From Escherichia coli (GTDB taxonomy: Bacteria; Pseudomonadota; Gammaproteobacteria; Enterobacterales; Enterobacteriaceae): 853 nucleotides of DNA. Under the pieces are notes generated by a model. The model searched no databases. It worked only from the letters and a program-made list of their open reading frames with translations, and was not told the DNA's origin. Each line of letters begins with the position of its first letter. Position 1 is the first letter of the stretch. The stretch lies in NCBI RefSeq assembly GCF_003334335.1, contig NZ_QOWQ01000143.1; one strand, written 5' to 3'. Below, one piece after another: positions 1-853 of the stretch. The translations under genes and the position numbers were made by a program.

Positions 1-494
1 GTCACCCACATGCTGTACTGCACCTGGGCCATGTAAGCCGACTTTATGGCCTCGAAACCACCGAGCCGGAACTTCATGAAATCCCTGGAGGTAAACGGGC
101 ATTTCAGCTCAAGGCCATTGCCGTCACTGCATAAACCATCGGGAGAGCAGGCTGTGCGCATACTTTCGTCGCGATAGATGATCGGGGATTCAGTAACATT
201 CACGCCGGAAGTGAATTCAAACAGGGTTCTGGCGTCGTTCTCGTACTGTTTTCCCCAGGCCAGCGCCTTAGCATTAACTTCCGGAGCCACACCGGTGCAA
301 ACCTCAGCCAGCAGGGTGTGGAAGTAGGACATTTTCATGTCAGGCCACTTCTTTCCTGAGCGGGGCTTTGCTATCACGTTGTGAACTTCTGAAGCGGTGA
401 TGACGCCGAGCCGTAATTTGTGCCATGCATCATCCCCCTGTTCGACAGCTCTCACGTCGATCCCGGTACGCTGCAGGATAATGTCCGGTGTCAT
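1..494 (-). CDS. exo: Lambda exonuclease (Exo / Red-alpha), 5'->3' dsDNA exonuclease; N-terminal 164 codons, 3' end truncated by window edge (full protein is about 226 aa)
   Basis: Minus-strand translation from the ATG at 494-492 reads [164 protein letters not shown](T), with no stop through position 3. This matches the lambda Exo N-terminus as I recall it, including Arg28 and the PD-(D/E)XK catalytic residues Asp119, Glu129 and Lys131. It was absent from the ORF track only because there is no in-window stop codon. Confidence 0.96.
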
Positions 495-853
495 GCTGCC
501 ACCTTCTGCTCAGTGGCTTTCTGTTTCAGGAATCCAAGAGCTTTCACTGCTTCGGCCTGTGTCAGTTCTGACGATGCGCGAATGTCGCGGCGAAATATCT
601 GGGAACAGAGCGGCAATAAGTCGTCATCCCATGTTTTATCCAGGGCGATCAGCAGAGTGTTAATCTCCTGCATGGTTTCATCGTTAACCGGAGTGATGTC
701 GCGTTCTGGCTGACGTTCTGCAGTGTATGCAGTATTTTCGACAATGCGCTCGGCTTCATCCTTGTCATAGATACCAGCAAATCCGAAGGCCAGACGGGCA
801 CACTGAATCATGGCTTTATGCCGTAACATCCGTTTGGGATGCGACTGCCACGG
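491..853 (-). CDS. bet: Bet (Red-beta) single-strand annealing / recombination protein; C-terminal 120 codons plus TGA stop, 5' end lies beyond the window (full protein is about 261 aa)
   Basis: The minus-strand frame is open from 853 down to the TGA at 493-491 and reads [120 protein letters not shown]. This matches the C-terminal region of lambda Bet. The supplied ORF (491..829) starts at an internal Met (Met codon 829-827); the frame continues without a stop to the window edge, so the true start is upstream and outside the window. Confidence 0.96.
499..505 (-). promoter_or_regulatory. Probable Shine-Dalgarno sequence for exo (AAGGTGG on the minus strand), embedded in the last codons of bet
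   Basis: The minus-strand sequence reads ...GAGCAGAAGGTGGCAGCATGA. AAGGTGG lies 4 nt upstream of the exo ATG (494-492), with the AGG core 7 nt upstream. This is consistent with a ribosome-binding site placed inside the upstream gene for coupled translation. Confidence 0.55.

Follow-up and report, generated by a model that had tools for sequence, protein, structure and literature searches.

Organization of the bet-exo junction

The window, by which we mean the whole 853-base stretch of Escherichia coli DNA that was analysed, contains parts of two genes, both encoded on the minus strand. Positions 1–494 hold the 5′ part of exo (lambda exonuclease, Red-alpha), which was identified by translation, by its identity to PDB and lambda sequences and by a Pfam match. 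The ATG start codon of exo lies at 494-492, and codons 1–164 of 226 are included, with base 3 being the end of codon 164 and bases 2-1 opening codon 165. Positions 491–853 hold the 3′ part of bet (Red-beta single-strand annealing protein), i.e. codons 142–261 followed by the TGA stop codon at 493-491. The bet gene is located directly upstream of exo on the same strand, and in the records that match the window exactly gam and kil are found further upstream. In minus-strand translation, the exo frame consists of 164 sense codons and is free of stops up to the window edge, and the bet frame (853-494) consists of 120 sense codons that precede the TGA. The first-pass annotation of this DNA had stated that neither portion is interrupted by a frameshift or an internal stop. 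This holds for the codons inside the window, as no such lesion was found in exo codons 1–164 or in bet codons 142–261.

The two genes overlap by four bases (ATGA, 491–494, minus strand), so that the stop codon of bet and the start codon of exo are interlaced, and the junction can be read directly as GCATGA. Annotated records of lambda, PhiR5_1, 434 and others also show bet and exo overlapping by these 4 bases. A Shine-Dalgarno-like box, AAGGTGG (499–505, minus strand), is present in the sequence 5′ of the exo ATG, within the end of bet, and in the record of phage 434 a ribosome-binding site is annotated at the place that corresponds to window positions 504-501. Both the overlap and the box would fit coupled translation of Bet and Exo. 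A search of the window against Rfam with E-values up to 1 gave no matches, and no promoter-like sites were found in the window. A single terminator-like hairpin was detected on the plus strand, antisense to bet (718–732; CTGCAGTGTATGCAG followed by TATTTTCG), which corresponds to chance level (0.6 hairpins are expected in shuffled sequences). Two plus-strand open reading frames of 88 and 97 aa, also antisense to bet and without support as genes, were rejected as spurious.

Exo residues involved in catalysis and 5′-phosphate binding

The 164 residues of Exo encoded in the window are identical to residues 1–164 of the product of exo from NC_001416, and their protein identity to PDB entries 6M9K (chain A), 1AVQ and 3SLP is 100%. 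Residue 131 is the sole difference from the K131A trap mutant (3SM4). The residue numbers that had been given in the first-pass annotation agree with those of the crystal structures, and since the match to a characterised enzyme is complete, chance resemblance is not an issue. The fragment matched the Pfam YqaJ family (PF09588), which belongs to the PD-(D/E)XK superfamily, with an E-value of 1.1e-28 over model positions 2-146 of 150, and the full-length copies are named 'lambda exonuclease family protein' in RefSeq. The scores for two NCBIfam profiles were below the curated cut-offs: 45.8 bits against a whole-protein cut-off of 68.05 for TIGR03033 (phage_rel_nuc), for which the query covered 164 of the 226 aa of Exo, and 37.7 bits against 76.95 for TIGR01913 (bet_lambda), of which the window covers profile positions 152-188 only. 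Such scores are expected with fragments of whole proteins as queries, but they do not amount to a match at the cut-off.

The 15-residue context that had been given for the triad in the first-pass annotation was found in the translation, and the catalytic motif of Exo within it reads PD-x9-ELK, which corresponds to PD-(D/E)XK. In the codon reading of the minus strand, the PD half (143-138) is formed by Pro118 (CCC) and Asp119 (GAT, 140-138), and the (D/E)XK half (110-102) by Glu129 (GAG, 110-108), Leu130 (CTG, the middle codon) and Lys131 (AAA, 104-102). All the coordinates that had been assigned to the Asp119-Glu129-Lys131 triad were thus found to be right, and the codon that had been claimed for Arg28 is present as CGG at 413-411. 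Asp119, Glu129 and Leu130 are ligands of the catalytic metal (PMC3118119), with the role of Asp119 also given in PMC7496540, Lys131 serves as the catalytic base, Glu85 belongs to the active site and Leu78 acts as a wedge (PMC7496540). In the window, the codon of Glu85 is located at 242-240 and that of the hydrophobic wedge residue Leu78 at 263-261, both on the minus strand. The 5′ phosphate is bound by Trp24 and Arg28 (PMC7496540, PMC3239189), and the phosphate pocket is completed by Ser35, Ser117 and Gln157 (PMC3239189). This pocket is complete in the window, with five of five residues present on the minus strand: Trp24 (TGG, 425-423), Arg28, Ser35 (392-390), Ser117 (146-144) and Gln157 (26-24). 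Position 48 is a lysine in both lambda and the window.

Lambda Exo (NP_040616; PDB 1AVQ, 3SLP, 3SM4, 4WUZ and 6M9K) and the Exo of the window are therefore the same in the triad, the phosphate pocket, the wedge and helix E. LHK-Exo, an alkaline exonuclease from Laribacter hongkongensis (3SYY), belongs to a fold family that is common with lambda Exo (PMC3239189), and its Arg, PD and E-I-K residues align in register with Arg28, Pro118-Asp119 and Glu129-Leu130-Lys131, respectively. It is only a distant relative, with an E-value of 8e-11 over residues 18-145.

Bet and the Exo-Bet interface

The Bet part (residues 142–261) agrees with lambda Bet (NP_040617), a member of the RecT/Red-beta family, at 119 of 120 positions, and matches were obtained to PDB entries 8TFU (E-value of 6e-47), 6M9K (chain D) and 7UJL. 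The entire Exo-binding C-terminal domain, which consists of three helices, falls inside the window. The N-terminal DNA-binding/annealing domain (residues 1–177) is represented in the window by residues 142–177 and is intact in the exact-match records. In the structure of the complex (6M9K), helix E of Exo (Thr90, Leu91, Phe94 and Thr95) docks into Leu223, Ile227, Phe249 and Leu250 of Bet, and Gln252, Lys253 and Glu256 of Bet surround the docked helix (PMC6393309). Mutations in the hydrophobic core of this interface abolish double-strand DNA recombination (PMC6393309). In the window, the ridge of helix E that docks into the Bet C-terminal domain is encoded at 210–227 and the Bet interface residues at 509–610, with Leu223 at 610-608, Ile227 at 598-596, and Phe249, Leu250, Gln252, Lys253 and Glu256 within 532-509 (all on the minus strand). 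Every contact residue that was reported for the interface is kept on both proteins.

The sole amino-acid difference from lambda in the whole window is A255T in Bet, for which codon 255 (512–514, minus strand) is ACT (Thr) in the window and GCA (Ala) in reference lambda, i.e. two bases are changed. Among nine lambdoid records, this position is occupied by Thr in seven and by Ser in one, and Ala is found only in lambda. Thr is the common allele in this sample, and it is therefore reference lambda that is the outlier. Residue 255 is part of the C-terminal-domain helix, where it has the contact residues Lys253 and Glu256 on either side.

Exact copies, flanking genes and prevalence

Escherichia phage PhiR5_1 (PV340545.1, 5549-6401) is 100% identical to the window over all 853 bases. 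Its exo and bet encode 226 and 261 aa, gam and kil are located upstream, and the record contains a complete lambda-like set of structural genes. When the Exo protein of PhiR5_1 was looked up by exact match, it was found in 431 blocks of the assembly collection, and eight of these places were fetched (L014-L021). The window is present base for base in six of the eight (L014, which is CU928162.2, L015, L016, L018, L020 and L021), on contigs of up to chromosome size and each time with full-length bet and exo, and L017 differs from the window by one base. Examination of the flanking sequence had been proposed as a check on the integrity of the genes. Run on the exact-copy records (PhiR5_1 and the six bacterial ones), it revealed no truncation or frameshift of exo or bet, as both genes have their full lengths of 226 and 261 aa in seven of seven. 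Because exact copies lie inside bacterial contigs, e.g. CU928162.2, the prophage setting that had been considered for the window is plausible, and the identical sequence is also found in a record that was deposited as a phage genome. A paper on PhiR5_1 and its sister phages, which might say whether they were isolated as plaque-forming phages, was not found by phage name, topic or accession number. Lambda and the exact-match records have the same order of genes, kil-gam-bet-exo, and in both exo overlaps with bet by ATGA.

Of 5,426 complete E. coli genomes, 3,610 contain a match to the window, with the gene products labelled lambda exonuclease family protein and Bet, and 198 phage records contain one as well. 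A 100% copy is absent from all 5,426 of these complete RefSeq genomes, the best match being 99.8%. That exact copies exist in GenBank assemblies and none in complete RefSeq genomes is a matter of the content of the collections, not of biology. The two proteins are Exo and Bet of lambda themselves, encoded here by an allele common among E. coli. This is an already known and ordinary system, and the window contains nothing new with respect to the lambda Red system. The main use of the analysis is the correct annotation of this DNA as the 3′ part of bet and the 5′ part of exo from a lambdoid Red operon, which appears functional from its sequence.

Substitution pattern and comparison with decayed copies

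The window and lambda differ at 20 of 853 bases (97.7% DNA identity). In exo, all 14 differences from lambda are synonymous base changes. With the observed 10 transitions and 4 transversions placed randomly on lambda exo codons 1–164, the probability that 14 of 14 are synonymous is ∼1.1e-8. Five bet codons are changed relative to lambda, four of them synonymously and one with a replacement. When compared with the exo of E. coli TUM22767, which is more divergent (79% DNA identity), the window shows 90 synonymous and 33 non-synonymous codon differences, and all 11 functional residues that were checked are unchanged in TUM22767. Among the nine lambdoid records, 23 codons of exo 1–164 vary only synonymously and five are variable in amino acid.

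We read the window as the place where bet meets exo in the Red operon of a lambdoid phage or prophage, comprising the last 120 residues of Bet and the first 164 of Exo, with both genes under purifying selection, and assign a probability of about 0.93 to this reading. The comparisons support the view that these are retained, constrained Red recombination genes rather than a decayed remnant. The first-pass annotation had likewise called exo probably functional and not a remnant, and this suggestion is backed by the synonymous-only divergence of exo, the intact interface and the full-length exact copies. The argument that it had offered, namely the triad, stands in part: the residues are indeed intact, but three intact codons are necessary for function and not sufficient.

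Two copies in other records illustrate how these genes decay, and a third may do so. The exo pseudogene of DLP12 (E. coli K-12 type, L005 2314-2903) retains residues 134–226 only and is 95.7% identical to window positions 1-93. Since the remnant starts at residue 134, it is devoid of the triad, and Arg28 is also gone. It abuts a piece of replication gene P, which lies on the opposite strand, and everything from bet to O has been deleted. The YqaJ pseudogene of E. coli C10 (L007 1998-2449) is 92.8% identical to the window over positions 45-501 and contains a 1-base deletion near codon 48, P118L, a change of the Glu129 codon from GAG to TAA and further replacements. It is cut off at about codon 150, so that the C-terminus is lost, and its neighbours are an IS4 pseudogene and part of a gene for tail-fibre assembly. 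None of the lesions of the DLP12 and C10 copies is found in the window. In the third copy (L019; GCA_900449405.1, UGCV01000008.1), an identical Exo protein is encoded beside a bet that is frameshifted by an additional T in codon 210 (∼2845; equivalent to window positions 647-649), so that Bet would end at 213 aa and lack the domain that binds Exo. There is an IS1 element in the vicinity. The insertion may be real decay or a sequencing or assembly error. Either way, an identical Exo accompanies a broken bet in this record, and an intact triad alone is therefore no proof of an intact Red system.

Such copies also bear on the possibility that the prophage behind the window is decaying, with a catalytic core of exo that still looks perfect and a break in exo or bet just beyond the window. 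Sixty-two codons of exo (165–226) and 141 codons of bet (1–141) lie outside the window, and broken copies do occur, as seen in L019 with its frameshifted bet, in the C10 copy with its frameshift and stops, and in DLP12, where Exo is reduced to residues 134–226. However, wherever the window was found as an exact copy, both genes were full length (7/7), and L019 does not belong to the exact copies, since it is lesioned at bet codon 210, a site within the span of the window at which the window itself is intact. We therefore regard a break just outside the window as very unlikely.

Less probable still, and in our view hardly tenable, is that the genes are free of selection and owe their perfect state to very recent shared ancestry with lambda. 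The DNA identity of 97.7% does mean that the two lineages are close. Nevertheless, 20 substitutions have accumulated between them, and their distribution (14/14 synonymous in exo, P ∼1e-8; four of five changed codons synonymous in bet) is not that of unconstrained sequence. The same pattern is observed at 79% identity and in the nine lambdoid records (23 versus 5), whereas the C10 copy, which is unconstrained and 92.8% identical, has been frameshifted, interrupted by a stop and altered by several replacements. Purifying selection on both genes remains the preferred reading, and what serves to settle a question of function of this kind is the synonymous pattern, the flanking frames and the comparison with decayed copies. 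The intact triad by itself is a weak test of function, and the window has value for calibration in this respect.

Proposed mechanism of the Exo-Bet pair

Based on its identity to an enzyme that has been crystallised and assayed, the Exo of the window is predicted to be a Mg-dependent 5′-to-3′ exonuclease. By analogy with lambda Exo, it would assemble into a trimeric ring, load onto the end of double-strand DNA and thread the duplex (PMC7496540). The 5′ phosphate would be seated in the Trp24/Arg28 pocket and the duplex end unpaired on the Leu78 wedge (PMC7496540). The 5′ strand would then be cut processively into mononucleotides in a two-metal PD-(D/E)XK site composed of Asp119, Glu129 and the Leu130 carbonyl, with Lys131 presumably serving as the base in two-metal cleavage (PMC7496540). 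With its C-terminal domain held by helix E of Exo, Bet would be loaded on the emerging 3′ overhang (PMC6393309), and the loaded Bet may coat the 3′ strand and anneal it to a complementary strand (PMC7496540, PMC6393309).

The window encodes the two partners of this reaction in adjoining genes. Both exo and bet belong to the pL operon, which is silenced by the repressor in a lysogen. Because the operon is silent in this state, the selection that keeps exo and bet most likely acts on the phage during lytic growth and not on the host.

Variation in the Exo tail, the Bet C-terminal domain and neighbouring genes

Beyond the window, the distribution of changes in exo is different. Between PhiR5_1 and lambda, codons 1–164 contain 14 synonymous changes and no replacements, and codons 165–226 (L001 3814-4002) contain no synonymous changes and six replacements (Fisher P = 2.6e-5). 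From lambda to the exact-match records, the replacements in these last 62 residues are N168D, D192N, S198N, I202M, F221Y and R226Q. Among the nine lambdoid records, the ratio of synonymous-only to amino-acid-variable codons is 23:5 in the core and 4:9 in the tail (P = 0.003), and the variable tail sites are 168, 189, 192, 194, 198, 202, 221 and 226. In Bet, four of four residues that vary among the nine records are located within the last 66 residues. The simplest reading of the variation in the Exo tail and the Bet C-terminal domain is that an exposed region is less constrained. That diversifying selection acts on a surface seems doubtful; if true, it might point, for example, to interaction with a host factor or defence system, or to partner specificity. 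The variable C-terminal part of Exo was also considered as a contact surface for Bet and rejected, as the published interface is helix E (residues 90–95), which is invariant here.

In TUM22767 (L006 1814-3699), the lambda-type exo has a 305-aa RecT-type annealase and GamL as its partners, not Bet and Gam. The Bet-binding residues of its Exo helix E (Thr90, Leu91, Phe94 and Thr95) are unchanged despite the RecT-type partner. In PhiR5_1, genes for a HipA toxin and a HipD antitoxin are annotated between kil and cI (L001 6367-7940), and the corresponding stretch of the annotated lambda locus contains cIII and ea10 just past kil. The gam gene is annotated as 98 aa in PhiR5_1 (L001 5282-5578), 434 and 4C10, and as 138 aa in the lambda RefSeq record (L002 2317-2733), SfI and Stx2 phage 1717, a difference that looks like one of start-codon choice rather than of sequence.
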